Both the position numbers and the translations under genes were made by a program. From NCBI GenBank assembly GCA_035445045.1, contig DAOMPZ010000023.1, positions 1-23,889 of the forward strand: a DNA stretch of 23,889 nt. The letters run 5' to 3'. Below, one piece after another: positions 3-23,889 of the stretch (position 1 is its first letter; each line of letters starts with the position of its first letter). This stretch comes from Crocinitomicaceae bacterium (GTDB lineage: Bacteria; Bacteroidota; Bacteroidia; Flavobacteriales_D; Crocinitomicaceae). The notes below the pieces were generated by a model. It saw nothing but the letters and a program-made list of their open reading frames with translations, searched no databases and was not told where the DNA came from.

Positions 3-1340
3 TTGCCTAACAATGTGAATGTATTGAATATTCGTTACAAAGGCGAAAATGGTGTGTATAGCAGTACATTGAGTAAATTGTTTGTGAAATTGCCAAATTC
101 AACTGCTATCAACAACAAAATTATTTCCTACCAGTATTGGATTGATGAGGATTTTGCAGACAAAAAAGTTGTCAACCTCACAACAGCGGTTCAACAGGTA
201 AATGTTTTGGGCGATTTAGATATGTCACAAATCACGAAAGGAAATCACACGCTTTATGTTCAGTTTTTAGATACATTGGGCGTTTGGAGTGTGGTCAATC
301 ACCATGATTTTGAAAAGGAATCGTTTCCAATTTCAGATTTCGACTATGCGCTAACAGCAAACTGTGATTCAACAATCGTAACGTTTACCGATAAGAGCAT
401 CGACGGAGATACGTATCTTTGGGATTTTGGCGATGGAAACACGTCAACAGATGCATCTCCCGAATATGTTTATTACAACCCTGGAACGTATTTGGTAAGT
501 CAAACGGTAACAGACACCCTTACTTTGGCAGACAGTACCACTATCCAAACGGTCGTAATTACAGGGAGAACATACGGTTCAACGACACAGGTTGCGTGTA
601 ATAGTTATACTTCTCCGTCAGGGAAAATTTATACTACAACAGGCGTACATAATGACACGATTACAAATCATTTAGGTTGCGACAGTATTATTGCCATAAA
701 CCTGACAATAAACAACAGTACAACTTATACGGACGTACAAACAGCTTGCGGTAGCTACACTTGGATAGACGGAGAAACATACACGGCAAACAACAACACC
801 GCTACGCATATTTTGACAAACGCTGCTGGTTGTGATAGTCTTGTTACGTTGAATTTAACTATTAAACCAAATCCGAGTATTAACGTTACACAAGAAGAAA
901 TAGTTCTTACGGCAACGCAAACAGGAGCGAGCTATCAATGGTTAGATTGTGATAATGGTAACGCACCGATTGCCAATGAAAACGGAAATGTTTTTACAGC
1001 AACTCAAAACGGAAATTATGCCGTAGAAATTTCGATGAATGGTTGTATTGATACGTCAATATGCTATCCCGTTACAACAGTTGGAATTGTAGAAGCTACG
1101 TTTGACCATGCTATTGCGGTTTATCCTAATCCTACAAATGGACAAGTAACAATTGATTTGGGTAAAATTTATGACAATGTTGCTGTAACAGTTCAGTCTA
1201 TCAATGGACAGGTTGTAAAACAAGTACAGTATCAAAATCAAAAGTTATTGGATTTATCGTTAGATGTTTCCAATGGAATTTACGTAATATCATTGGTTTC
1301 AAATGACAAAACAGCCGTATTGAGAGTAGAGAAACATTAG
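3..1340 (+). CDS. Secreted T9SS cargo protein, 5'-partial. Contains a PKD-like domain, two Cys-bracketed 50-aa modules and a T9SS C-terminal sorting domain.
   Basis: The frame is open from the window edge, so the TTG at position 3 is probably not the true start. A PKD-like signature (TFTDKS..YLWDFGDGNTS..P.Y.Y..GTY.V.QTVTD) lies at about 336-525. The C-terminus (YPNPTNGQVTIDL...GIYVISLVSNDKTAVLRVEKH, about 1110-1337) is typical of Por/T9SS type A CTDs. Stop is TAG at 1338-1340. Confidence 0.8.
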   Translation: MPNNVNVLNIRYKGENGVYSSTLSKLFVKLPNSTAINNKIISYQYWIDEDFADKKVVNLTTAVQQVNVLGDLDMSQITKGNHTLYVQFLDTLGVWSVVNHHDFEKESFPISDFDYALTANCDSTIVTFTDKSIDGDTYLWDFGDGNTSTDASPEYVYYNPGTYLVSQTVTDTLTLADSTTIQTVVITGRTYGSTTQVACNSYTSPSGKIYTTTGVHNDTITNHLGCDSIIAINLTINNSTTYTDVQTACGSYTWIDGETYTANNNTATHILTNAAGCDSLVTLNLTIKPNPSINVTQEEIVLTATQTGASYQWLDCDNGNAPIANENGNVFTATQNGNYAVEISMNGCIDTSICYPVTTVGIVEATFDHAIAVYPNPTNGQVTIDLGKIYDNVAVTVQSINGQVVKQVQYQNQKLLDLSLDVSNGIYVISLVSNDKTAVLRVEKH

Positions 1341-1396: not shown

Positions 1397-2299
1397 ATGT
1401 CAATCACGTTAAAAAATGTAAGTAAATTTTACGGCGAACAAGCAGCTGTAAATAACATCAGTTTTTCCATTAATAAAGGCGAAGTGGTCGGGTTTTTAGG
1501 ACCGAACGGCGCAGGAAAATCTACGACCATGAAGATGATAACAGGTTTTATTCCTGCATCTTCGGGCGAAATCAGCGTATGTGATTTAAAAGTCGATATA
1601 GACTCGTTGGACACACGCCGTTTAATCGGTTATCTACCCGAACACAATCCGTTGTATTTGGATATGTATGTGCGTGAATATTTGGAGTTTGTTGGTAAGA
1701 TTTACCATGTCAAAAATTTGAAATCACGCATTGATGAAATGATTGAAACGGTTGGTTTGCAAGTAGAACAAAACAAAAAAATCGGAATGTTGTCGAAAGG
1801 TTATCGCCAGCGTGTCGGCTTGGCTCAAGCGATTATCCACGACCCCGAAGTGTTGATTTTGGACGAACCAACATCGGGATTAGACCCCAATCAGTTAGTC
1901 GATATTCGTGAGTTGATAAAAAACATCGGGAAATCAAAAACCGTTATGCTTTCGACACACATCATGCAGGAAGTAGAGGCGATTTGCGACCGTGTTATTA
2001 TCATCAAAAAAGGTTCAATCGTCGCAGACGACAAAGCCGAAAACTTGCAGTACGAAAACCAACATCAAGTTGTTTATGTGGAGTTTGAGCAAAATGTATC
2101 TAAAAATCAGTTGGCAAAAATTCCGACTGTTTCCAAAGTCGAACACGTTGGCGGAAATTCGTGGCTTATCGAAACCAACACCACAACAGATTTGCGCAAA
2201 GTAATCGCACAATTTGCACAGCAAAACAATGTTCTTGTGTTGACAATGCGTCAAGAAGAACGCAGTTTAGAAGAAGTATTTAAAGCATTAACCAAATAA
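1397..2299 (+). CDS. gldA: ABC transporter ATP-binding protein, resembling the gliding-motility GldA type
   Basis: Walker A (GPNGAGKST), ABC signature (LSKGYRQR) and Walker B ([11 protein letters not shown]) are present. Length is 300 aa. The N- and C-terminal pattern (..[14 protein letters not shown]) resembles Flavobacterium GldA. No permease gene is adjacent, as is the case for gldA. The symbol rests on remembered similarity, not on a search. Confidence 0.6.
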
Positions 2300-12769: not shown

Positions 12770-12805
12770 ATTGTTAAACCAACAAGTCTCATCGGGACGA
12801 CGGAC
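12770..12805. repeat. Hairpin-repeat family, copy A (degenerate, first hairpin only)
   Basis: The sequence is ..ttaaaccaacAAGTCTCATCGGGACGACGGA. The stem is GTCTC/GGGAC with one T-G wobble. It is preceded by AGTTAAGAGT (12744-12753), which also precedes copy C. It overlaps the 3' end of the minus-strand TonB_C gene. Confidence 0.55.
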
Positions 12806-13217
12806 TTTTATTCAAGGTAAATTCAACAGGCAAAATAAAATACGAATTAACGATTTGCCCATTCTTTTTAGCAGGAATCCATTTTGGCATTATTTTCACA
12901 ACACGAATAGTTTCGGCATCACATTCGGGGCAATCTTTTGCACCTTTTATAACTTCTGCATTTGTGATACTTCCCTCTTTACTAACAACAAGTTTAAGAA
13001 TGCTTCTTCCTCTGTATGAAATCTCTTGAAGTATAGCGGGCAAGCGAAGATTTTCTCTTAAAAATTTAAGCAATTCCTTTCTGCCACCTGGAAATTCGGC
13101 ATACTCATCTACATACGTTTCAATTTCGGGGTTTTGGTCTTTTGGCTGAACAGGCGGTTGCGCAAGACTCATGCTCGAAAACAAAGCAATTACACTAAAA
13201 ATGACTACGGCTTTCAT
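12789..13217 (-). CDS. Secreted TonB C-terminal-domain protein (TonB_C only)
   Basis: There is a signal peptide (MKAVVIFSVIALFSSMSLAQ). The TonB_C-like pattern follows: AEFPGGRKELLKFLRENLRLPA...GRSILKLVVSKEGSITNAEVIKG......VVKIMPKWIPAKKNGQIVNSYFILPVEF. Length is 142 aa. There is no N-terminal TM anchor and no long Pro-rich spacer. Confidence 0.7.
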   Translation of the reverse strand: MKAVVIFSVIALFSSMSLAQPPVQPKDQNPEIETYVDEYAEFPGGRKELLKFLRENLRLPAILQEISYRGRSILKLVVSKEGSITNAEVIKGAKDCPECDAETIRVVKIMPKWIPAKKNGQIVNSYFILPVEFTLNKSPSSR

Positions 13218-13325: not shown

Positions 13326-13382
13326 ATTAACAAGTCCCATCGGGACGACCGATATTGTTCGCAGGGATTTTAATCCCTGCCG
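13326..13382. repeat. Hairpin-repeat family, copy B (best-formed copy)
   Basis: The sequence is attaacAAGTCCCATCGGGACGACCGAtattgttcGCAGGGATTttAATCCCTGC. Hairpin 1 is GTCCC-atc-GGGAC. Hairpin 2 has a perfect 9-bp stem. It lies between the menC stop and the TonB_C gene start. Confidence 0.7.
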
Positions 13383-13383
13383 T

Positions 13384-14427
13384 CTAAACAACCCACAATT
13401 CCCCACCTCTAATCTCCGTCTTTGCTACCGTATTTTTAACAAACAATCCGCCTGTTCCCAAACCTTGGTGCGCACGAGCGACGTCATAAGTGGACACAAA
13501 TTGCGCAATCATATTTAAACCAACATTCGATTCTAACGCTGAGGTTATCCACCACGGAATATTCAGCGATGTCGCTAAATCAATCCATTCCCGACAACCT
13601 TTTAAACCACCATGCAAACTTGGTTTCAGAATGATGTACTGCGGACGTATCGTTCCCAAAAGTTCTTTTTTTGTGGCGTAATCATAAACACCAATTAATT
13701 CTTCATCCAAAGCAATTGGGCAGGGCGTTTGTCGGCAAAGTTTTGCCATTAAATCCCAATTTCCTGCTCGAATAGGTTGTTCAATCGAATGAATGTCTAA
13801 GGCGGCTAATCGTTGGAGTTTTTCCAAAGCCTCGTGATATGAAAAAGCACCGTTTGCATCAACACGCAAGGTCATTTGTTGGGAAGTATAATGTTTGCGA
13901 ATGTTAGACAACAGGCCAATTTCCGTATCAAAATCAATCGCTCCGATTTTCATTTTGATACACGAATAACCCTCGTGAAGTTTTGTCTGAATTTGCTCGT
14001 TCATGTAGGTTTCGCTCCCCAACCAAATCAAACCGTTAATCGGAATACCGATTTCTTTGCGAGTGAAAGCCGTGTCGTAAAAAAGTTGTTTTCCGCCAGT
14101 CGAAAAATCCAAAAAAGCAGTTTCCAAGCCAAAATACAAAGACGGTTTGTCGTACCATTTTTCAATAAATGGATTGAAATTGTCCGTTGTCAACTGATTT
14201 TCGTTGAGTTCATTTACGCATTGTTCCAACCAATTTTGAAACGTATCAAGTTGCTCAAATTCTTTGGTTAAACCCTCAATAATACTGATTTCGCCAATTC
14301 CAACTAGTTCACTTCCTGTTTCTGAAAGATAAATATACCAAGCGTGTTTTTGGGTTAAAATCCCTCTACTTGTACCACTCGGACGTTTAAAGGTCAAAGG
14401 CGCATATTTTAATTCAAATCGTAACAT
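13384..14427 (-). CDS. menC: o-Succinylbenzoate synthase (enolase superfamily, MLE subgroup)
   Basis: Enolase-superfamily catalytic pattern is present: KxK (CIKMKIG), metal ligands in RVDANGAF, IEQP and LDEEL, and a second Lys in ILKPSLHGG. Length is 347 aa. It sits immediately downstream of menA. Confidence 0.75.
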   Translation of the reverse strand: MLRFELKYAPLTFKRPSGTSRGILTQKHAWYIYLSETGSELVGIGEISIIEGLTKEFEQLDTFQNWLEQCVNELNENQLTTDNFNPFIEKWYDKPSLYFGLETAFLDFSTGGKQLFYDTAFTRKEIGIPINGLIWLGSETYMNEQIQTKLHEGYSCIKMKIGAIDFDTEIGLLSNIRKHYTSQQMTLRVDANGAFSYHEALEKLQRLAALDIHSIEQPIRAGNWDLMAKLCRQTPCPIALDEELIGVYDYATKKELLGTIRPQYIILKPSLHGGLKGCREWIDLATSLNIPWWITSALESNVGLNMIAQFVSTYDVARAHQGLGTGGLFVKNTVAKTEIRGGELWVV

Positions 14428-14429
14428 AC

Positions 14430-15374
14430 CTAAAGAATAGAACTTAACGCAAATAAAATACTGATTAAAAAAGTTGCCAGCGCAACAGTTTTTAAAAATG
14501 GGTCAAACGCTTTGTCTTCTTGAACATGCCAAACTTTACGAATATGAACAAGCAAAATTAAAATCGGAATACCAAGCGAACTAAAAAATAATGTCAGTTT
14601 CTGAAATAACAAAATGTACGCAAGCAAACTCGCAATCGCTGAAAGAATTAAAAACGTATGGTATATTTTAGCATTTTTTCGACCAATTTTCACGACCAAT
14701 GTACGTTTGCCGACTTTTTCATCGTTTTCGCAATCTCGCATATTGTTGAGGTTCAAAACCGCCGTGCTTAACGCTCCGATTGTAAATGCAGGTAACAGTA
14801 GTTTCCATTCAAAAGTTTCCAATGATAACTGTGCAGGAAACAAGTGATAGACACCAATTACGCTTACAAATCCGAAGAAAATAAACACGAAAATATCGCC
14901 CAAGCCCAAATATCCGTAGGCTTTTTTGCCCATAGTATAGGTAATTGCTGCGAAAATGCAGAAAAATGCCAGCACGATGTAAAACAACCAAAATGAAAAG
15001 TCTTTTCCGTTTGCACTGACGTAAATCAACGAAACTGAACTGATAAATGCCAAAACACTCGTCAATCCAACAGCAATTTTCATGGACGAAATGCTAATTC
15101 CTCCCGACTGCACGGCTCTTGTTGGACCAACTCGATTGGCGTTGTCTGCACCTTTGAGTGTGTCGCCTAAGTCGTTGGCGAAATTGGATAAAACCTGAAA
15201 AAACAAGGTTGTCAACAATGCTAAAATAAAAATTGTTTTGTTGAAAATATTGTCATTAAATGCCACAAAACTCCCAAAGATAATGCCCGAAAGTGACAGC
15301 GGTAAGGTACGCAAACGTGCGGCGTGTAACCAAATTTTAATGCGTGACATCATTCGTTTTATTTCTGTTTGCAA
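14430..15374 (-). CDS. menA: 1,4-Dihydroxy-2-naphthoate polyprenyltransferase (UbiA family)
   Basis: It has about 8-9 TM segments. The motif NFANDLGDTLKGADNANRVGPTRAVQSGGIS parallels E. coli MenA NLANDYGDAVKGSD..RIGP.R. A second Asp-rich motif, NNMRDCENDEK, is present. The true start may be the internal MMSR (15350/15353). Confidence 0.82.
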   Translation of the reverse strand: MQTEIKRMMSRIKIWLHAARLRTLPLSLSGIIFGSFVAFNDNIFNKTIFILALLTTLFFQVLSNFANDLGDTLKGADNANRVGPTRAVQSGGISISSMKIAVGLTSVLAFISSVSLIYVSANGKDFSFWLFYIVLAFFCIFAAITYTMGKKAYGYLGLGDIFVFIFFGFVSVIGVYHLFPAQLSLETFEWKLLLPAFTIGALSTAVLNLNNMRDCENDEKVGKRTLVVKIGRKNAKIYHTFLILSAIASLLAYILLFQKLTLFFSSLGIPILILLVHIRKVWHVQEDKAFDPFLKTVALATFLISILFALSSIL

Positions 15375-16092
15375 TATCTAATAAAAAATCGGCATTTTGC
15401 TCAATGTGATTGCCGATAACAATAACATTTGCATCGTTTTGAAAATTCTCAATTTCTTGAATAGAGCGAATACCACCGCCCACAATAATTGGGCAATTCG
15501 GCAATGCTTTATGTGTTTGTTCAATTAAATGCAAAGGAACGGTATTTTTTGCGCCACTTCCTGCATCGTAATAAATAATACGTTTACCTTGCATCGCTCC
15601 TGCCAAAGCCGTTTGTAATGCAATTTGGTCTTGGTCGGACGGAATAGGTGTCGTCTGACTGATGTAAGCGACCGAACTTTTTGTGCCTCCCTCAATTAAA
15701 ATATATGCTGTTGGTAAAATCTCCAAACTCGATTGGTGCAATTCGGGACTTGCCAAAACATGATGACCGATTAAAAAATCCGCATTTCTACCTGAAAGTA
15801 AACTCAACAACAAAATCGCATCGGCATCGTGCGAAATCTGATGACTTGAGCCAGGGAATAAAATAAGCGGAATATCTGTGTTCGCTTTTAAAATTGAAAC
15901 GATGTTTTCGGTTTCTTTGCGTGTGACGGTACTTCCTCCGATAAAAAAGAAATCAATTTGCGCAAATTCTGCCTTTTGGATAAGGGCAAGCAAGGCAACT
16001 TTATCCGTTGCTTTTTCGGGGTCGATTAAAATGGCAATTTGCCCTTTTTTCTGTGCGAGCTTATTATAAATATGTGTTCGATTCTTGTACAA
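15337..16092 (-). CDS. Geranylgeranylglyceryl/heptaprenylglyceryl phosphate synthase family protein (PcrB/GGGPS-like TIM barrel)
   Basis: The family pattern is present: ILIDPEK, FFFIGGS, LFPG, LLSLLSGRNADFLIG, YYDAGSGA, VGGGIRS, VIVIGN. This is collinear with B. subtilis PcrB and archaeal GGGPS. Length is 251 aa. It overlaps both neighbouring genes. Confidence 0.8.
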   Translation of the reverse strand: MYKNRTHIYNKLAQKKGQIAILIDPEKATDKVALLALIQKAEFAQIDFFFIGGSTVTRKETENIVSILKANTDIPLILFPGSSHQISHDADAILLLSLLSGRNADFLIGHHVLASPELHQSSLEILPTAYILIEGGTKSSVAYISQTTPIPSDQDQIALQTALAGAMQGKRIIYYDAGSGAKNTVPLHLIEQTHKALPNCPIIVGGGIRSIQEIENFQNDANVIVIGNHIEQNADFLLDIANRNKTNDVTH

Positions 16093-16705
16093 GTGCGTTC
16101 TTATTAAAACTAAAGATGTAATTATCTTTCACAAAAGTAGTAAATTCTGTCACGTACCATTGATTTTTTAGCAAGACACACCCGAAGTAGGTATTATTTA
16201 CCTGACTTATAATAATATGATTTTGATAATCCAATCCGACAATCGAAACGGCTTTGTACAAAACTTCTTTCATCGTCCAAATGCGTGTTAATTCTTCTGC
16301 GGAATTTAAATCAAAATGCTGTTCTTCGTGCGCATTGATAAATTTAGACGTAACACGTTTTACTTTGTCCGAAATTAGTTCAATATCCAACCCGATTTGA
16401 AAATCTGCGACAAGCATACCTATATATATAAAGGAATGACTAATTGAAATGTGTTTTTCTGCATGATAAAGTAGGCGAGGCGCACCATTTTCGCTGTAAA
16501 TTATTTCCTCGTTTTCAAAAAGATAATTTTTCAGACAAACCACACCTTTAAATTCTCGTTTGCGTTTTTCGGACGAAAATTCATTCAAGCGTTTTAATTC
16601 GTGTTCCCGAAATTCAATTTTTGCCAAATCCAACGACGGCTCATTTTTCAAAAAAACAAGCTGAGTATCATCTATTTTATATTCTTCAATCAAGCAATCA
16701 GACAT
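16064..16705 (-). CDS. 4'-Phosphopantetheinyl transferase (Sfp-type)
   Basis: PPTase motifs are present: ISISHS, GLDIE and WTMKEVLYKA (the W-x-x-KE-x-x-K motif). Length is 213 aa. It overlaps the GGGPS-like gene by 29 nt. Confidence 0.75.
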   Translation of the reverse strand: MSDCLIEEYKIDDTQLVFLKNEPSLDLAKIEFREHELKRLNEFSSEKRKREFKGVVCLKNYLFENEEIIYSENGAPRLLYHAEKHISISHSFIYIGMLVADFQIGLDIELISDKVKRVTSKFINAHEEQHFDLNSAEELTRIWTMKEVLYKAVSIVGLDYQNHIIISQVNNTYFGCVLLKNQWYVTEFTTFVKDNYIFSFNKNALVQESNTYL

Positions 16706-16838
16706 TTCACTAAATTTACATAACGAGTTACAAATAAAATTGCTAATATAGCAACAAAGTATTTAATGATAGACAAATTTTTAGTACAGAGTTAAACAAG
16801 TTAAGAGTTTAGGGTGATGAGTTAAGATGAGTGACGGA

Positions 16839-16897
16839 ATTTAATAAGTCCCATCGGGACGACCGATATCAATAGGCAAGCGGTTTTAACCCTTGCC
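16839..16897. repeat. Hairpin-repeat family, copy C
   Basis: The sequence is atttaatAAGTCCCATCGGGACGACCGAtatcaataGGCAAGcggttttaaccCTTGCC. It lies in the divergent spacer between the PPTase gene and the TBDR-like gene. Confidence 0.7.
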
Positions 16898-16913
16898 GAA
16901 AATAAAGGGCGAA

Positions 16914-16972
16914 ATTTAACAAATCCCATCGGGATGACCGACTATTATAAGCAGGCTGTTTCAACCCTTGCC
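16914..16972. repeat. Hairpin-repeat family, copy D (tandem to C, 75-bp offset)
   Basis: The sequence is atttaacAAATCCCATCGGGATGACCGActattataaGCAGGctgtttcaacCCTTGCC. Hairpin 1 is ATCCC-atc-GGGAT, a compensatory G-C to A-T change at the base of the stem relative to copies B and C. Confidence 0.7.
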
Positions 16973-17078
16973 TCAAAAAAAAACTAAAAACTTTTAAACA
17001 GTTGGCTGTTTGTATGCGGATTTAACTATCTTTACGCACTTTTTAGTAGTAGAATATGTATAATTTTAAACGTGAATT

Positions 17079-20000
17079 ATGATTAGACGATTACATTTAA
17101 TTGTTTTAAGTATCTTTTTATCAGCCACATATTCCTTTGCACAAGGAGGTTTGGGGAATATTAAAGGATACGTGAAGAATGCAGAAGGGAAGCCAGTCGA
17201 TTTTGCAAAAGTAATGATTAAGCAAGGGTCATCAACCAAAGCGGTAGATATGACGGACGACGAAGGTATGTTCCAAATCATGTCAATAGAGCCAGGTGAC
17301 TATGACATTGTTGTAGAATCGGAGGAGTATCCTACTTTTACTTTGGAGAAATTCAAAGTGAGAGGAGACCAAACGAATGAAGCCAACATTAAACTTGGAA
17401 GTGCCGAGGAATTAGGCGTGGTTAGAGTTAGAGCTGAAACGAAGCTTATCGACCCGCACAGTGCTAACAAAGGTATTCTCGGTCGTGAGGATATTGGTAA
17501 CTTAGCTCCTCGTAGCCCAGCAGAGTTGGTTAAAACTCAAGCAGGTGTTCTTGAAAGTGAAGGTACAGGCGAAATCAGTATTCGTGGTTCACGTCCAGAA
17601 GATAACTATTTCTATATAGATGGTATCAAAGTGCGTGGTTCAAGTAACATTCCAAAAGGTGCGATTGAGGAAATCTCGGTGTTCGTTTCGGGTTTACCTG
17701 CATCGTACGGTGACGTTACGGGTGGTGTAATCTCGGTTACAACACGTGGACCGCAAGGGCAATTCTTCGGAAGTGTTGAGGGCGTTACGTCGGGTTTCTA
17801 CTTTAAAGGAAAAGACAAATTCGGTTATGACGGTAAAGTGTTCGGTTTGGATAAATACGGTTATAACTTAATTGAAGGCTTATTTGCAGGACCACTTTGG
17901 ATGCAAAAAGATTCTTTAGGAAATAAAACAAAACCACGTTTAGGTTTCTTAGTGACTGCTATGTACAACGATATGTTAGACGGCAGACCAATGGGAAATG
18001 GTGGTAACTACCGTGTTAAAAAAGAAGTACGTGACGAATTGTTGGCAAATCCACTTCGTTCCGATGCGTCGGGAACAGGTTCCTATCCAAATGCAGAATT
18101 CTTGAGAGAAAGTGATTTTGAACGTGTGAAATGGAGAATGAATGCGCGCAGAAGAGTAATTTCGGGAACAGCTAAATTAGACGTTGCCACAGGGCCACGC
18201 ACAAACTTATCTTTTGGTGGTTCGATGAACTACAATGGCGGTTCGTTATATGGTTATTCAAATCGAGAGCTTTGGGGTAATAGCTATACAAATTCATTGT
18301 TTAACTTCAACAATTTTGCGATTGAAAATAGATTAGATTGGCGTGTTTACGGACGTTTTACACAGCGTTTCATTAACAATGACGCAAAAGCAAAAATTAG
18401 AAGTTTCGTTTATACTTTAATGGTCGATTATTCACAATCTTCTATTGAAAGATACGACCCGAAACACAAATTTAATTTCTTTAATTACGGTCACGTAGGT
18501 ACGTTTATTATCGACAGAGAAAATTCGTATGAAATTAATTTTGCAAATCAATCGGCTGTTCACAATGGATTTAGAGATAAAGAAGTTTATTACACACCGT
18601 CACGTATTAATCCCGATTTAGCTGCTTACACAAGTCAATATTATAATATCTATGATGGAATGGCTACGGGACACTATGAGAATTTAACACAAATTCAATT
18701 AGGAAACGGTTTGATTAACGGTGATGTTCCGAGAGCAGTTTATAATACATGGAACAACATTGGTGCACCTTTCAATGGTTTTGCACAAACAAACAACCAA
18801 CAAATTCGTCTTTCAGGTTCGGGAACAGTAACGGCAGGAAAACACTCTATTACGTTAGGTTTCGAGTTTGAACAACGTTTTGACCGTGGATTTACAAACG
18901 GTTACGACCAAGCAGGAAGTAGTAATGGACCTGTTGGCTTGTGGACAATTGCACGTCAGTTGGCAAACTTCCACATTCGTGAGTTAGATTTGGACAACCC
19001 AATGATTTCTATTGAAAACGGACTTCAAATTATTAACTACAACCGTTTAAATTCAAGTTATGCTTATGCAAATAACGGTGTTTATGGAGGTCAAAAAACA
19101 GGTGATGAGCAATCATTCTTCGATTACAACTTGCGTAAAAAATTAGGTATGTCGGGTGGAAGTAGCACATTTGTTGATGTGGACGCTTACGACCCGAATA
19201 TGTATTCATTAGATATGTTCTCTGCTGATGAATTATTAAATTCAGGTTCATCATTCGTTTCTTATTGGGGATATGATCATACAGGAAAACGTGTGAAAGG
19301 AACAACAGACATCAACAAATATTTCAATGAATATGATGCGAATGGTAACTACAGACGTTTTGTAGGTGCGTTCCAACCAATTTATGCATCGGTTTTCGCC
19401 ATGGATAAATTTGAGTTCAAAAACATGATTTTCAACATCGGTGTACGTGCTGACATCTTTGACGCCAACCAACCCGTATTGAAAGACCCTTATTTATTAT
19501 ATAATGCTTACACAGTAGGAGAGGCTAAAAAAATAGCAGAAGACATGGGGCTTACATGGGCAAAAGATATGCCTTCAAGCATCGGTGACGACTATACTAT
19601 TTATGTAAATGACGTAAATAATCCTACAGCAATCAATGGATATAGAAGTGGTGATACTTGGTTCAACAAAGACGGAGACGTTGTAGATGATCCAAAATTA
19701 ATTAGAGGTTCGGCTGGTATTGCTCCGTGGTTGAAAGACCCGAACAATCAAGTGGTGAATGCAGATGCGTTTACAAAATACAAACCACAAATTAACATCA
19801 TGCCACGTATCTCATTTGCTTTCCCTATTTCAGAAAAAGCATTGTTTAGTGCGCATTACGACATCTTGACAAAACGTCCAACGTATGGTCTTCGTTTTGA
19901 CCCGTATGAATATCAATTCTTGAAAAACCGTTCGGCGATTGTAAACAATCCAAACTTACGACCAGAACAAACAATCGACTACGAAATTGGTTTCCAACAA

Positions 20001-20867
20001 GCGATTGGTACAAAATCATCAATTAAAATTTCAGCTTACTACCGTGAGCAAAGAAATGTAGTACAGATGATTAACGTACAAGAGGCATACCCAAGAACAT
20101 ACAGAACGTATGGAAACAGAGATTTCGGTACAGTAAAAGGTATTATCTTGTCGTATGATTTAAGAAGAACTGGAAACATTCGTTTGACAGCGAACTATAC
20201 GTTACAATTTGCAGAAGGTACAGGTTCAAATGCTAACTCTGCTTCTGGTTTGATTAATGCAGGTCAACCAAACTTACGTAACATCTTCCCGTATGATTAC
20301 GACAGAAGACACGCATTTGCAATTACGTTTGACTACCGTTACGGAAGAGGTGCAGATTACAACGGACCAAGCATCAAAGATGTGAAGTTGTTTGAAAACA
20401 TGGGATTGAATATTATGACAAATATTTATTCAGGTTCGCCATACTCTGCACAAACGATAATTACAGATGAAGGTCACTTCTCTCCACAGTCGGCAGGTTT
20501 GTCAGGAACAACAAACGGTTCTCGTTTACCATGGACATACAGATTAGATTTACAAATCGACAGAACGATTCCAATTTTAATGGGTAAAAAACCTTCAGAA
20601 GGTGAAAAAGACAATAGAAAAAAGACACATTTACAAGTTTATTTAAGAATTACAAACCTTTTGAACCAAATGAACGTTATTAATGTGTATCGTGCTACAG
20701 GTAACTGGAATGACGACGGATATTTAGAGGCTGCACAATATCAGTTAGCAATTCAGTCACAATTAGACGAGGCTTCGTATAGAGATTTCTATACTATGAA
20801 GATACAAAATGCGTCTAATATCAGTATGCCGAGACAAATTCGTTTAGGAGTTAAATTTGATTTTTAA
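17079..20867 (+). CDS. Large outer-membrane beta-barrel of the CarboxypepD_reg + Plug + TonB-dependent-receptor type (Oar-like, not SusC-like)
   Basis: There is a signal peptide (..SATYSFAQ). An N-terminal carboxypeptidase-regulatory-like domain follows (GNIKGYVKNAEGKPVDFAKVMIKQGS...PGDYDIVVES). Plug motifs are present (ISIRGSRPEDNYFYIDGIKVRG and IEEISVFVSGLPASYGDVTGGVISVTTRGP). A long barrel ends in the aromatic terminus RLGVKFDF. Length is 1262 aa. Confidence 0.8.
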   Translation: MIRRLHLIVLSIFLSATYSFAQGGLGNIKGYVKNAEGKPVDFAKVMIKQGSSTKAVDMTDDEGMFQIMSIEPGDYDIVVESEEYPTFTLEKFKVRGDQTNEANIKLGSAEELGVVRVRAETKLIDPHSANKGILGREDIGNLAPRSPAELVKTQAGVLESEGTGEISIRGSRPEDNYFYIDGIKVRGSSNIPKGAIEEISVFVSGLPASYGDVTGGVISVTTRGPQGQFFGSVEGVTSGFYFKGKDKFGYDGKVFGLDKYGYNLIEGLFAGPLWMQKDSLGNKTKPRLGFLVTAMYNDMLDGRPMGNGGNYRVKKEVRDELLANPLRSDASGTGSYPNAEFLRESDFERVKWRMNARRRVISGTAKLDVATGPRTNLSFGGSMNYNGGSLYGYSNRELWGNSYTNSLFNFNNFAIENRLDWRVYGRFTQRFINNDAKAKIRSFVYTLMVDYSQSSIERYDPKHKFNFFNYGHVGTFIIDRENSYEINFANQSAVHNGFRDKEVYYTPSRINPDLAAYTSQYYNIYDGMATGHYENLTQIQLGNGLINGDVPRAVYNTWNNIGAPFNGFAQTNNQQIRLSGSGTVTAGKHSITLGFEFEQRFDRGFTNGYDQAGSSNGPVGLWTIARQLANFHIRELDLDNPMISIENGLQIINYNRLNSSYAYANNGVYGGQKTGDEQSFFDYNLRKKLGMSGGSSTFVDVDAYDPNMYSLDMFSADELLNSGSSFVSYWGYDHTGKRVKGTTDINKYFNEYDANGNYRRFVGAFQPIYASVFAMDKFEFKNMIFNIGVRADIFDANQPVLKDPYLLYNAYTVGEAKKIAEDMGLTWAKDMPSSIGDDYTIYVNDVNNPTAINGYRSGDTWFNKDGDVVDDPKLIRGSAGIAPWLKDPNNQVVNADAFTKYKPQINIMPRISFAFPISEKALFSAHYDILTKRPTYGLRFDPYEYQFLKNRSAIVNNPNLRPEQTIDYEIGFQQAIGTKSSIKISAYYREQRNVVQMINVQEAYPRTYRTYGNRDFGTVKGIILSYDLRRTGNIRLTANYTLQFAEGTGSNANSASGLINAGQPNLRNIFPYDYDRRHAFAITFDYRYGRGADYNGPSIKDVKLFENMGLNIMTNIYSGSPYSAQTIITDEGHFSPQSAGLSGTTNGSRLPWTYRLDLQIDRTIPILMGKKPSEGEKDNRKKTHLQVYLRITNLLNQMNVINVYRATGNWNDDGYLEAAQYQLAIQSQLDEASYRDFYTMKIQNASNISMPRQIRLGVKFDF

Positions 20868-20886
20868 TAATGTAACAATCAAGATT

Positions 20887-23800
20887 ATGAGAGTAAAGAT
20901 TAAATATTTATTAATGGTTACAGCGATGACATTCGCTATGCCTTCATTCGCTTACTTTAAAGCTAAAGACAAAAGTGGCGATGACGGAAAAGGAAGTAAC
21001 CAAAATGGCTTTGACGGTAAAGCCAATTGTGCGCCTGCAACGGCAACGTTAAACATGGAATTTAATAACGTTCGTGCGGTATTAAACACGAATGGTGTAT
21101 TATTCCGTGACTTCCGTAACAACGGAAAAGCGGGTTACGAAGTTCCAAAAGTGGACATCGGAATTAAAAGAACAGCGATTTATGCTGCTGCCCTTTGGAT
21201 GGGAGGAACAGATGTTAACAACCAGTTGAAATTAGCAGGAACTACGTTCGGAGAAGGAAATGACTTTTGGGCAGGTCCTTTAACAGTAAACTTAGGGACG
21301 GGAGATTACGACCCACGTTATCCTGTTGGAGATTTAGCACGTAGAGATTTCGGAGAAGCATCAATTATGCCTGAACAATGTGCTAAGTACGATAAGTTTT
21401 TTACGATTACAAAATCGGAAGTTATCCAATTTATTACATGGTGGGAAGTAAATAATGGCGTTGTAGAAGCAGGTTCAGAACCTATTGCAGAACCTTCTGC
21501 CGTAACGATGGACCGAATTTTGAATTGGCCTGCACACGGTGATCCAACATTAGGACAAGATCATTATTTAGCTCCGTTCTATGATAGAGCGGCTGAAAAC
21601 GAGTCAACAGGAAATGGTGTTTATAACCCAATGGAAGACGGTGATTACCCGTGGTATGACGATATTATTGGTAGAGATGATGTTCAGTGTGGTGTTGACC
21701 GTCGTATTACATTGTTTGGTGATGAAACAAATTGGTGGATTTTTAACGACAAAGGAAATATTCATACATCATCAAAAGGCGACCCAATCGGTATGGAAAT
21801 TCGTGCGCAAGCATTCTCCTTCACAACTGCTGATGAAATTAATAACATGACGTTCTACAATTATGAGATGATTAACCGTGGAACACAAACTCTTTACAAT
21901 ACATATTTCGCACAATATGTTGACCCAGACTTAGGGGGAGCAATGGACGACTATGTAGGTTGTGATGTATCAAGAGGTTTGGGATATGCGTACAATGGAG
22001 ATAATTATGATGATGATTTCCAAGGAAACCCTGGTTATGGTGCAAATCCTCCTGCTGTTGGGGTTGACTTCTTTGAAGGCCCTTATCAAGATGCGGACGG
22101 AGAAGATAACTATGGACCATACAACGACTCTGTTACAGGTTTACCTGCTCAAATGGACGTGTTTAAAGCAATTCAAGAAAAAGGTATTGTTTACAAAGGT
22201 TTGGGTATCGGTTATAATGACGGAATTATTGACAACGAGCGTTTTGGTATGAAACGTTTTACATACTATATCAATGGTGGACAAGCAGCGATGTCTGACC
22301 CTTCAACAGCAGCACAGTTTTATAATTATATGAAAGGTAGTTGGAGATATGGAGATGCCATGACATTCGGAGGAACTGGTTTTGGAGGTACGTTACATGC
22401 CGATTATATGTTCCCAGGCGATTCTGACCCATTAAATTGGTCAACAGCTGGAATTGCTCCTTCTTTTGACGGTTGGGCTGAAAATAATACAGACGGAAAC
22501 GGAGGTAGTAACCAACCAGGTGACCGTCGTTTTGTTCAGTCTGCTGGTCCTTTTACATTAAGACCAGGTGCAATCAACAACATTACGGTTGGATTTGTAT
22601 ATGCTCGTTCGATTGAAGGTGATTTGATGGCGTCCGTTAGAGCATTGAAAGTAGCAGACACAAAAGCGCAAGCGTTGTTTGACAACTGTTTTGAGTTATT
22701 AGATCCGCCAAATGCACCGACATTGACAATTCAAGAGTTAGACCAACATTTAGTTTTGATGTTGTCAAATCCTGTAAACTCAAACAATTATCATGAAAAA
22801 TACAAACAAGAAGATAAAATCAACATTGTTGACCCACCAGACGGTTCTGTAATATATGATAAATATTATCGTTTTGAAGGTTATCAAATCTTCCAATTAA
22901 AAGATGCAACGGTTTCTGTTTCTGACATTTATGACACAGATAAAGCTCGTTTAGTAGCACAATGTGACATCAAAAACGACTACAAATCTTTGATTAATCA
23001 TGAATTAAACGAAGAGTTAGGTATTACCATCGGTTCATTGAAAGTGAAAGGTGCAAATGAGGGTATCAAACACTCGTTTAAAGTTACAGAAGATCAATTT
23101 GCACAAGGTGTAAGAACATTGGTAAATCATAAGAAATACTATTATGTGGCGGTGGCTTACGCCGTGAATATGTACAAAGAGTATGACCAAAATGACCCAC
23201 TTAAACTTGATGGTCAAAAAATACCATACATTTCTTCACGTATCAGTCCTGACGGTACGGCAATTGAACCAAGTATTGCTATTCCGCATAACCCTGCACC
23301 TGAGGCAAACGGTTCAAGAACAAATAGCTCGTATGGTGATGTTCCTGAAATTACTGCAATTGATGGTTACGGAAACGGAAGTATGGCATTGCAATTAACA
23401 GAAGCATCATTAAATACGATTTTACAAAATGGATTTATTACAGAGCCTACTTACAAAAAAGGTTTTGGTCCATTGAATGTAAAAATTGTTGACCCATTAA
23501 ATGTTGCAGGAGGTTATTACGAAGTGGTATTTAATAAGTATAGTACAAATCCATCTTATCCGATTTATGTAAACAACCACTTTGGTACAGATACAGCATC
23601 TTGGACAATTTACCGTTACGAATCGAAAGGTGGCGCATTGGTTGACTCGATTAATTCAGAGAGTACAATTGCTGTTGGAAACGAACAGTTAATTCCTGAA
23701 TGGGGTATTTCAGTTGATATTTATCAAGACAAATACTTCTATGACAATGGAAATCCCGATGCAATGCCTACAGAAAAGGAAAGAACAACAAATTTCCTTT

Positions 23801-23889
23801 CAGCAACGATGGATTTTGAAGATTCTACAAAACGTTGGTTGACAGGTGTTTTTGACACGGAAGATTATTTCCCTACCAACTGGATTTTA
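20887..23889 (+). CDS. Very large secreted protein of unknown function (3'-partial, at least 1001 aa). This ORF is absent from the supplied ORF track.
   Basis: ATG at 20887 lies 19 nt after the barrel gene stop. I read all 1001 codons to the window end and found no stop. The frame coincides with the first base of every 60-nt sequence line. The signal peptide is MRVKIKYLLMVTAMTFAMPSFA with no lipobox Cys. Codon usage is like that of neighbouring genes. Every track ORF in this interval is short and out of frame. Confidence 0.85.
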   Translation, partial: MRVKIKYLLMVTAMTFAMPSFAYFKAKDKSGDDGKGSNQNGFDGKANCAPATATLNMEFNNVRAVLNTNGVLFRDFRNNGKAGYEVPKVDIGIKRTAIYAAALWMGGTDVNNQLKLAGTTFGEGNDFWAGPLTVNLGTGDYDPRYPVGDLARRDFGEASIMPEQCAKYDKFFTITKSEVIQFITWWEVNNGVVEAGSEPIAEPSAVTMDRILNWPAHGDPTLGQDHYLAPFYDRAAENESTGNGVYNPMEDGDYPWYDDIIGRDDVQCGVDRRITLFGDETNWWIFNDKGNIHTSSKGDPIGMEIRAQAFSFTTADEINNMTFYNYEMINRGTQTLYNTYFAQYVDPDLGGAMDDYVGCDVSRGLGYAYNGDNYDDDFQGNPGYGANPPAVGVDFFEGPYQDADGEDNYGPYNDSVTGLPAQMDVFKAIQEKGIVYKGLGIGYNDGIIDNERFGMKRFTYYINGGQAAMSDPSTAAQFYNYMKGSWRYGDAMTFGGTGFGGTLHADYMFPGDSDPLNWSTAGIAPSFDGWAENNTDGNGGSNQPGDRRFVQSAGPFTLRPGAINNITVGFVYARSIEGDLMASVRALKVADTKAQALFDNCFELLDPPNAPTLTIQELDQHLVLMLSNPVNSNNYHEKYKQEDKINIVDPPDGSVIYDKYYRFEGYQIFQLKDATVSVSDIYDTDKARLVAQCDIKNDYKSLINHELNEELGITIGSLKVKGANEGIKHSFKVTEDQFAQGVRTLVNHKKYYYVAVAYAVNMYKEYDQNDPLKLDGQKIPYISSRISPDGTAIEPSIAIPHNPAPEANGSRTNSSYGDVPEITAIDGYGNGSMALQLTEASLNTILQNGFITEPTYKKGFGPLNVKIVDPLNVAGGYYEVVFNKYSTNPSYPIYVNNHFGTDTASWTIYRYESKGGALVDSINSESTIAVGNEQLIPEWGISVDIYQDKYFYDNGNPDAMPTEKERTTNFLSATMDFEDSTKRWLTGVFDTEDYFPTNWIL

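Follow-up and report, generated by a model that had tools for sequence, protein, structure and literature searches.

We analyzed a 23,889-nt stretch of DNA from a Crocinitomicaceae bacterium (GenBank assembly GCA_035445045.1, contig DAOMPZ010000023.1, positions 1 to 23,889 of the forward strand; hereafter, the window). The window ends within a large open reading frame (ORF) that begins at ATG 20887. This ORF encodes most of a secreted-type protein (here called the big protein) that is strongly conserved, belongs to no curated family, and in full-length homologues ends in a C-terminal domain (CTD) resembling those of PorZ and PorU, which are type IX secretion system (T9SS) proteins. The gene follows one for a TonB-dependent-transporter-like barrel and, in related genomes, precedes one for a PorV/PorQ-family barrel. 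We propose, with belief and doubt about evenly balanced, that the big protein is a T9SS-exported surface protein that would retain its CTD on its own PorV/PorQ-family barrel and act together with the transporter-like barrel.

An open frame of 1001 codons encodes most of a large secreted-type protein

Translation from ATG 20887 on the + strand yielded 1001 sense codons with zero stops (20887-23889), up to the window edge. At the composition of this segment (38.8% GC), a stop is expected per 14 codons, which puts the log10 probability that 1001 codons stay open at about -32. Over the same interval, each of the remaining five frames closed within 42-97 codons. An earlier reading of the letters alone (the original prediction) had reported a stop-free ORF of at least 1001 codons that was absent from the ORF track for want of a stop in the window. 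It was right on both counts, as the ORF listing omits frames that run off the ends. Because the preceding in-frame stop ends at 20847 and the N-terminus agrees with those of full-length homologues, including a 91%-identical protein, P0001 (MRVKIKYLLMV), we take ATG 20887 to be the correct start.

P0001 is the nearest full-length relative, with 1407 aa and 91% identity over all 1001 window residues. Therefore, the window holds the N-terminal 71% of the protein, and approximately 406 residues of a full-length protein of ~1407 aa are missing past its end. The earlier description of a giant secreted protein was accurate as to a large protein of secreted type and generous as to its size. Because the window stops at residue 1001, the CTD and the third gene of the locus were read from homologues with 82-91% identity and the same synteny.

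We considered whether the ORF could be an assembly artefact, or a pseudogene left open by chance, instead of a functional gene. The sole point for this explanation is that the 3' end is absent from the window. The probability of such an open length (~1e-32), the identity to a 1407-aa protein across all 1001 residues, the thousands of homologues, and a codon-position GC that is the same as that of the neighboring gene effectively refute it.

The first 22 residues (MRVKIKYLLMVTAMTFAMPSFA, then Y) read by rule as a Sec signal peptide of the signal peptidase I (SPI) type: a basic n-region precedes a hydrophobic core, and S-F-A occupies positions -3 to -1 (coordinates of all features are listed in Table 1). 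This n-h-c pattern was retained among homologues (consensus ...NAFA, then Y), and no lipobox cysteine was found in the translated signal peptide. The Gly/Asp/Lys-rich linker that follows was disordered in the structural model (predicted local distance difference test [pLDDT] score, 28-31) and was the least conserved part of the protein (0.50 in the close set of homologues and 0.31 in the distant set). Both the signal peptide (residues 1-22) and the linker (residues 23-46) had been anticipated by the original prediction.

The protein body is highly conserved and has no convincing fold match

A word-indexed search returned more than 6242 homologues, nearly all of 1380-1420 aa; no Pfam domain is recorded for any of them. 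When 1.84 billion cluster representatives were searched exhaustively with HMMER, 6706 clusters (50% identity) matched at E <= 1e-3 and 1586 at E <= 1e-30. Two strict peptide patterns led to genomes of 531 GTDB species, of which the best were Crocinitomicaceae; a metagenome-assembled genome (MAG) of Taishania pollutisoli was among the best (83%). Remote members, with 35-40% identity, came from MAGs labelled Bacteroidales, Bacteroidia, Salibacteraceae, "Chlorobi," and KSB1. The protein family retains 58% identity across a bacterial family, 35-40% across orders, and hundreds of invariant residues. In public records its members go solely by "hypothetical protein" or by a generic T9SS label, "T9SS type A / C-terminal target domain-containing protein" or, at NCBI, "T9SS type A sorting domain-containing protein." Several MAG records (L007, L016, L029, L060, L065, and L080) are titled Chryseobacterium gleum, Chitinophaga pinensis, Akkermansia sp., or Candidatus Planktophila lacus; with their clearly Crocinitomicaceae-like locus, they are probably mislabelled or contaminated bins.

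Pfam and NCBIfam scans of the window protein, a full-length homologue, and six longer, insertion-bearing members (1536-1760 aa) found no family for the protein body and gave CTD-related sub-threshold matches; Pfam detected no repeat architecture. A PDB sequence search with the single window protein returned nothing. Residues ~47-600 form a conserved core that holds all six motif blocks listed in the original prediction as conserved-looking, together with acidic Ca-binding-like loops and four conserved cysteines (C48, C165, C268, and C359). In an alignment of 59 sequences, each block fell on invariant columns: C48, F59, N60, and G70 (block 1); L103-G107 and D109 (block 2); D126-W128 and G130-L132 (block 3); W283, W284, F286-D288, and G290 (block 4); D346, D348, G350, D354, D355, G358-V361, R363-G366, and N370 (block 5); and D546, R548-V550, A553-F556, L558, and G561 (block 6).

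An AlphaFold2 (AF2) model of the 1001 window residues had a pLDDT of 69.4 and a predicted template modelling (TM) score (pTM) of 0.64, with residues 50-800 mostly at 70-89. Foldseek comparison of this N-terminal model with the PDB gave weak partial matches (best E 4.5e-4, TM ~0.13), which were to accessory β-sandwich domains of glycoside hydrolase enzymes (GH94, GH116, GH15, and GH174), not to their catalytic domains. Against viral models (BFVD), the matches were to the FN3 arrays in phage tail proteins and had low TM. We read the modeled N-terminal part as a conserved core without a known fold (~47-600), followed by what appear to be FN3/Ig-like sandwiches. Past the window, P0001 contains a second conserved domain and then the CTD. 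The domain ahead of the CTD (~1000-1300) is highly conserved, with the motif GMGWFPGYAIDxExGxRL...FGENS...WNP, and had no fold match when the C-terminal model was compared with the PDB using Foldseek.

The original prediction had recognized neither a catalytic signature nor a family, and our searches agree. No Pfam or NCBIfam family reached threshold, no solved relative or fold match was found for the body, and the big protein has no HExxH motif. A confident match to a characterized family, which the original prediction had named as its refutation, did not arise in the HMM and fold searches. The idea of a cysteine peptidase built on the near-invariant Cys359 and His293 was rejected: in the tandem paralogues of locus L083, Cys359 is replaced by Val in one copy and His293 is lost, which argues against a Cys/His active site. 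A sub-threshold match of residues ~696-771 to the HK97 prohead protease (S78/TIGR01543) was likewise set aside, as the region models as an FN3-like sandwich and no such protein was among the BFVD fold-search matches.

Full-length homologues end in a conserved PorZ-like CTD

Full-length homologues with 38-91% identity all end in a domain matching the PorZ CTD (NF052228, E 1.4e-8 to 4e-10), which was the best NCBIfam match of each full-length member tested. In P0001, the score with the PorZ model was 33.6 bits (cutoff, 260), from an alignment confined to model positions 664-744, which are its CTD. The PorU model (NF033707) also aligned through the CTD alone, at 18.5 bits against a cutoff of 420, below the TIGR04183 and PorZ matches. 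The type-A model TIGR04183 gave 21.5 bits in P0001 and 19.4-21.2 bits in distant members (cutoff, 23). These sub-threshold type-A scores are near misses, not absences. There was no match to a type-B CTD. The original prediction had proposed a search of the 3' end for a T9SS CTD; one is present in the full-length homologues, PorZ/PorU-like and with a type-A skeleton.

Structural comparison pointed the same way. A profile of the family matched a single entry among PDB sequences, the PorZ CTD (5m11). The AF2 model of the C-terminal 548 aa of P0001 (pLDDT 84.7) matched the PDB through the CTD only: the top Foldseek matches were PorZ (5m11, E 5e-6, 23% identity) and then PorU (6za2), followed by the CTDs of NucA (8glk_D, within the T9SS translocon; TMt 0.68) and RgpB. 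As a control, the canonical type-A CTD encoded by another ORF of the window (3-1340) scored 34.8 bits with TIGR04183 (cutoff, 23) and 40.9 bits with PF18962 (cutoff, 27). Aligned with this control, the family CTD retains the PNP / IY..G / GxY / V.K skeleton and has, in addition, two inserts of 9 (YYAYSxYEN) and 8 residues and a tail of ~10 residues (FFGGMRQxDxxxI) whose Arg and Asp are invariant in 62 diverse sequences.

The conservation of the CTD reached 0.80 among the close homologues and 0.55-0.62 among the distant ones, a set in which most blocks were lower; it is among the best in the protein and similar to that of the core. Such conservation is not expected of a tag that is removed and thrown away, and the pattern argues for retention of the CTD over cleavage by PorU. 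We consider the big protein very probably a T9SS substrate; that its CTD is retained and docked on a cognate barrel seems to us moderately probable. Orthology to PorZ or PorU was rejected, since the defining domains are missing: PorZ β-propellers were not seen in the N- or C-terminal model, Peptidase_C25 had no match in the window protein or the full-length homologue, and the family has no conserved Cys/His pair.

The big gene is flanked by two barrel genes in a conserved order

In locus L001, which is syntenic with the window and 82% identical, the gene order is barrel, big protein, a 375-aa protein, and greA. With 152 bits against a cutoff of 90, the 375-aa protein is a member of the PorV/PorQ family (NF033709); the third genes of loci L083 to L087 scored 137, 113.7, 164.6, 134.5, and 147.5 bits, respectively. 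The third gene is present in the 82-84%-identical loci L001-L003, at a position that lies beyond the window's end. In L001 it scored 90.7 bits with PorQ (cutoff, 220), 63.5 with PorV (250), and 33 with PorV2 (325), and the best scores over all scanned third genes were 90.7 for PorQ (NF033711), 76.3 for PorV (NF033710), and 58.6 for PorV2 (NF052325). As all are under the equivalog cutoffs, the third gene represents a distinct PorV/PorQ subfamily. The partner barrels reached at most 25.9 bits with PorP/SprF (TIGR03519; cutoff, 90.55). A phmmer search of the third-gene protein against the PDB gave no meaningful match, a single-sequence search being too insensitive here.

By tblastn, 79 of 81 close loci had the barrel gene next to the big gene, both exceptions being contig ends, and the PorV/Q-like gene and greA were present in 58 of the 81, most of the others again being contig ends. 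The order barrel, big protein, PorV/Q-like gene, greA held in all 58 close loci that were long enough and had the third gene. Adjacency of the barrel gene extended to six of seven distant loci. L083 (38% identity), L084, L085 (labelled KSB1), L086 ("Chlorobi"), and L087 (Bacteroidales) each encode a barrel of 1218-1311 aa, the big protein, and the PorV/PorQ-family protein, and greA-HIT follows the trio in four of these five. Intergenic gaps were 19-41 nt across loci, and the three proteins diverge alike (barrel/big protein/PorV/Q-like identities of ~83/82/84%, then 62/63/58%, then 58/56/54%). In L085 (1-3143) and L087 (1-3188), three genes come before the trio, one for a Y_Y_Y/Reg_prop-type histidine kinase, one for a LytTR response regulator, and a short ORF (145-170 aa) without a family match; these genes may be a lineage-specific regulator of the operon.

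The resemblance to PorZ and PorU raises the possibility that the trio is itself secretion or attachment machinery, in which a PorZ/PorU-like accessory factor on a PorQ-like barrel forms a second, or lineage-specific, complex for attachment or sorting and, instead of taking up nutrients, processes or anchors other T9SS cargo or a cell-surface glycolipid. The CTD is nearest to those of two machinery components, the L001 third gene scores slightly better with PorQ than with PorV (90.7 versus 63.5 bits), and the wide distribution of the family, its housekeeping-like conservation, and the constancy of greA-HIT synteny across orders would suit such a role. However, the parts that define these components, the PorZ β-propellers and the PorU C25 peptidase, are absent, with the CTD alone aligning; the Cys/His pair is not conserved; and the third gene stays far under the PorQ cutoff. 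Flavobacteriia have a separate PorZ and PorQ (Fjoh_0707 and Fjoh_2755; PMC9127263), and the constant Plug-containing TonB-type barrel encoded by the first gene would be left unexplained. We regard a machinery role as unlikely.

The first gene of the operon encodes a 1262-aa protein with CarboxypepD_reg (50.4 bits; cutoff, 32.3) and Plug (30.3 bits; cutoff, 23.9) domains and the C-terminus ...VKFDF, and so has the layout of a TonB-dependent transporter (Plug, then barrel, with a C-terminal aromatic residue). Its large barrel domain had no above-threshold Pfam match in the window copy; some distant orthologues have TonB_dep_Rec_b-barrel or OMP_b-brl_3. A candidate TonB box, EELGVVRVRAET, was read between the two N-terminal domains. 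The barrel protein had no NCBIfam match to SusC/RagA or any other equivalog and no sequence relative in the PDB, and neither it nor the big protein matched SusD. The gap to the big gene is only 19 nt and has no terminator-like site on the + strand; distant loci preserve a short gap here, of 22-41 nt. From this arrangement we infer that the two genes are co-transcribed. The tight linkage to an outer-membrane barrel gene claimed in the original prediction holds. Upstream of the barrel gene, Rfam matched no riboswitch or leader RNA that could have pointed to the substrate, the Bacteroidota -7 motif TAnnTTTG was not enriched and had no exact copy in the gap, and a sigma-70 promoter scan stayed at background level.

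T9SS-secreted enzymes encoded beside TonB-dependent transporters are common in Bacteroidota. The big protein could accordingly be an ordinary released enzyme of a new glycoside hydrolase, lyase, or peptidase family, its CTD cleaved and its products imported by the neighbors. The weak Foldseek matches to sandwiches that accompany GH94, GH116, GH15, and GH174 catalytic domains fit this explanation, but they cover the accessory sandwiches and not the catalytic domains, at a TM of ~0.13, and the protein has no conserved catalytic motif. A discarded CTD would not account for core-like conservation with an invariant extra tail, and a dedicated PorV/PorQ-family gene would be needless. The locus contains no other polysaccharide-utilization genes and no SusD, and has a regulator only in some lineages. 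A released enzyme is, in our estimate, a rather poor prospect.

In some lineages, a second full-length paralogue with 55-59% identity lies in tandem, in an arrangement that recalls the tfsA-tfsB pair of Tannerella forsythia. By analogy with TfsA/TfsB, the big protein might be a T9SS-exported, Ca-stabilized, abundant surface-layer or coat protein that forms sheets, with the barrels serving as anchors or being merely syntenic. Its size, its mostly β structure with FN3-like sandwiches, its Ca-binding-like acidic loops, and the paralogue pairs are compatible with this explanation. Against it, surface-layer proteins normally evolve fast, whereas hundreds of residues are invariant in this protein family, which keeps 58% identity within a bacterial family and 35-40% between orders; the dedicated CTD-barrel pair contrasts with the ordinary cleaved CTDs of the Tannerella proteins; and Pfam detected no repeats. 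We consider a surface layer improbable, slightly more so than a released enzyme.

A proposed T9SS-delivered surface partner for a TonB-type barrel

The model that we favor has five steps. First, Sec would export the big protein to the periplasm by means of the SPI-type signal peptide seen in the sequence. Second, the T9SS would carry it across the outer membrane through the CTD, the fold of which is known from homologues. Third, the CTD would be kept and would dock on the dedicated 14-strand-type PorV/PorQ-family barrel encoded directly downstream, in the manner of PorZ on PorQ and PorU on PorV; ordinary type-A cargo loses its CTD. Fourth, the ~130-kDa body, comprising two conserved domains without a known fold, Ca-binding-like loops, and FN3-like sandwiches, would sit over or beside the upstream TonB-type barrel, and the invariant operon suggests that the three proteins form one outer-membrane complex. 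Fifth, and speculatively, the body would capture or process an extracellular substrate that the barrel imports, as a T9SS-delivered counterpart of the lipoprotein lids and binding proteins found in systems of the SusCD type.

Several points weigh against this model. The CTD falls just under the curated thresholds (TIGR04183, 21.5 versus 23 bits; PF18962, 16.2 versus 27 bits), and the N-terminal model is of moderate quality (pLDDT 69.4). In one subclade of Crocinitomicaceae, loci L043, L045, L049, and L071 have neither the PorV/PorQ-family gene nor greA downstream of the big gene, and in the subclade locus examined, L045 (12216-13256), a superoxide dismutase gene takes the place of the third gene. 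L082 has two tandem paralogues, with neither of the two barrel genes adjacent. Export, CTD retention, and complex formation are each inferred. The body has no recognizable binding or catalytic domain, so an uptake role draws on operon logic alone. Finally, conservation this high for a surface protein, together with constant greA synteny, may indicate a housekeeping role in the envelope and not nutrient capture.

Taken together, these results support the original suggestion of a surface or secreted component of an uncharacterized system, through the T9SS CTD of the full-length homologues, the barrel linkage, and the absence of a curated family. A role of the body in uptake is tentative and, in our view, leans toward doubtful. 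A still broader proposal is that the trio is a phylum-wide outer-membrane machine, in which a ~150-kDa T9SS-delivered protein with a new fold would be the extracellular working part of a TonB-dependent transporter. It would be held by a third class of cognate anchor barrel (of PorV/PorQ type, distinct from PorQ, PorV, and PorP/SprF) and inherited vertically beside greA since before the orders of Bacteroidota diverged, as a T9SS-assembled counterpart of the SusCD "utilisome." We offer this as a possibility that is on the unlikely side.

The ~150-kDa protein occurs in thousands of Bacteroidota lineages, including abundant freshwater Crocinitomicaceae and Flavobacteriales, and our searches found no curated family or structure for it and, among the papers searched, no description of it. 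If the favored model is true, the trio would provide a third type of cognate T9SS cargo/anchor-barrel pair, beside PorZ-PorQ/PorU-PorV and type-B/PorP-SprF. It would also offer a natural and highly conserved case in which to test how cleavage of a CTD is avoided. The T9SS would be physically linked to a TonB-type transporter, with a bearing on the nutrient-capture surface of Bacteroidota that rely on the T9SS. The two conserved domains without a known fold are candidates for new Pfam families, and a "hypothetical protein" becomes part of a three-gene module open to genetic and biochemical tests.

Other features of the window

Signs of the T9SS elsewhere in the window are GldA and the canonical CTD cargo of ORF 3-1340; gldKLMN and sprA are not among the window genes. 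GldA is above its equivalog cutoff, which suggests that the organism belongs to the gliding/T9SS world. Four genes on the - strand (13384-16705) encode a MenC-like enolase-superfamily protein, MenA, a PcrB-family geranylgeranylglyceryl/heptaprenylglyceryl-phosphate synthase (NF003198, 248.4 bits; cutoff, 247), and a phosphopantetheinyl transferase. L001 has this block as well, upstream of its trio. A gene of the geranylgeranylglyceryl-phosphate synthase family beside a prenyltransferase gene in a Bacteroidota genome may point to a link with ether-lipid synthesis. A 142-aa protein encoded 4 kb upstream of the barrel gene (12789-13217, - strand) consists of little beyond a TonB C-terminal domain (TIGR01352, 27.1 bits, exactly at the cutoff; Pfam TonB_C, 44.7 bits).

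The 373-nt gap upstream of the barrel gene contains a tandem 75-nt repeat (16824-16973; 75% identity) that belongs to a dispersed element resembling repetitive extragenic palindromic (REP) sequences. Its core, CCCATCGGGAYGACCGA, has two more copies at intergenic or gene-end positions (13336-13352 and 12788-12804), where 0.03 are expected by chance. The four copies share one orientation, and each unit contains two hairpins, the second stem of which shows compensatory changes between copies. The element had no Rfam match and is absent from all 87 related loci; therefore, it is genome-specific and not a conserved operon leader.

Table 1. Coordinates of the features described in the text (window positions unless a locus is named)
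Feature	Position	Strand	Basis
PKD-domain protein with canonical T9SS type-A CTD, probably 5'-truncated by the window start	3-1340	+	TIGR04183, PF18962
GldA, gliding-motility ABC transporter ATPase	1397-2299	+	TIGR03522, 444.6 bits (cutoff, 402.6)
TonB-dependent-transporter-like barrel, 1262 aa, first gene of the operon	17079..20867	+	Pfam
Intergenic gap of 19 nt between barrel gene and big ORF	20868..20886	+	Sequence
Sec (SPI-type) signal peptide, residues 1-22, predicted cleavage SFA/Y	20887..20952	+	Translation
Gly/Asp/Lys-rich linker, residues 23-46	20953..21024	+	pLDDT 28-31, low conservation
Conserved core without a known fold, residues ~47-600	21025..22686	+	Invariant columns; pLDDT mostly 70-89
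β-sandwich (FN3/Ig-like) region, residues ~601-1001, cut by the window end	22687..23889	+	All-β in model
Tandem paralogue, 59% identity	L083 13072-17034		
Tandem paralogue, 55% identity	L082 3668-7840		

Comparison with known systems

The closest parallels are the PorZ-PorQ and PorU-PorV pairs of Porphyromonas gingivalis. PorZ and PorU are the two T9SS proteins that retain their CTD. In these pairs, the CTD is kept as an anchor to the barrel; PorZ is anchored via PorQ, PorQ has been proposed to receive a substrate of its own from the translocon, and cognate PorV-like barrels have been hypothesized to shield a CTD from cleavage (PMC10947112, PMC10202324). The CTD of the big protein is nearest to theirs in sequence and fold, and its partner is of the PorV/PorQ family. 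In contrast, its body is unrelated, with no propellers and no C25 peptidase, and the whole protein is about twice the size of PorZ. Its CTD has two inserts and an invariant tail, and the barrel falls under the PorQ and PorV equivalog cutoffs. In P. gingivalis and F. johnsoniae, porZ and porQ lie apart as unlinked genes, whereas the cargo and barrel genes are adjacent here, and a TonB-type barrel is a constant third partner. The big protein would work most like PorZ-PorQ and PorU-PorV, yet it is not a member of PorZ or PorU.

Type-B cargo uses cognate PorP/SprF barrels in a similar manner (PMC12618676). As in SprB-SprF and the Fjoh pairs described there, a large T9SS surface protein is encoded beside its own small barrel, and the logic is alike in that the barrel collects the cargo from the translocon and sets its final place. 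However, the CTD here has the type-A/PorZ skeleton (PNP ... IY..G ... GxY), and the barrel belongs to the PorV/PorQ family (113.7-164.6 bits), with PorP/SprF scores well under the cutoff. Type-B cargo proteins are fast-evolving adhesins, whereas the big-protein family is strongly conserved. The type-B shuttle paper thus deals with another CTD class. The Bacteroidota β-barrel assembly machinery (BAM) was also considered and rejected: BamG has been described as a FadL/PorV-like barrel, but no BAM component matches the trio.

The SusC/SusD and BtuB/BtuG systems share with the trio a CarboxypepD_reg, Plug, and barrel gene that adjoins the gene for a surface-exposed partner, with a capture-to-channel operon logic. 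Unlike SusD and BtuG, the partner here has no lipobox, is not a lipoprotein, and would reach the surface via the T9SS. It is 2-3 times larger, a PorV/PorQ-type barrel is added, and SusD, SusC/RagA, and BtuG signatures are absent. Generic TIGR04183/PF18962 cargo proteins resemble the big protein in having a Sec signal and a C-terminal β-sandwich of ~90 aa with PNP / IY..G / GxY. Their CTDs, such as that of ORF 3-1340, score well above both thresholds, whereas the CTD here is under both, highly conserved, and extended.

Pairing of a T9SS cargo with its cognate anchor barrel is a known principle, whereas the specific trio of barrel, big protein, and PorV/PorQ-like protein is neither curated nor described in the literature that we searched. 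The trio is distinguished by a PorZ-like extended CTD, a PorV/PorQ subfamily of its own, a constant TonB-type barrel, two domains without a known fold, and a phylum-wide spread linked to greA.

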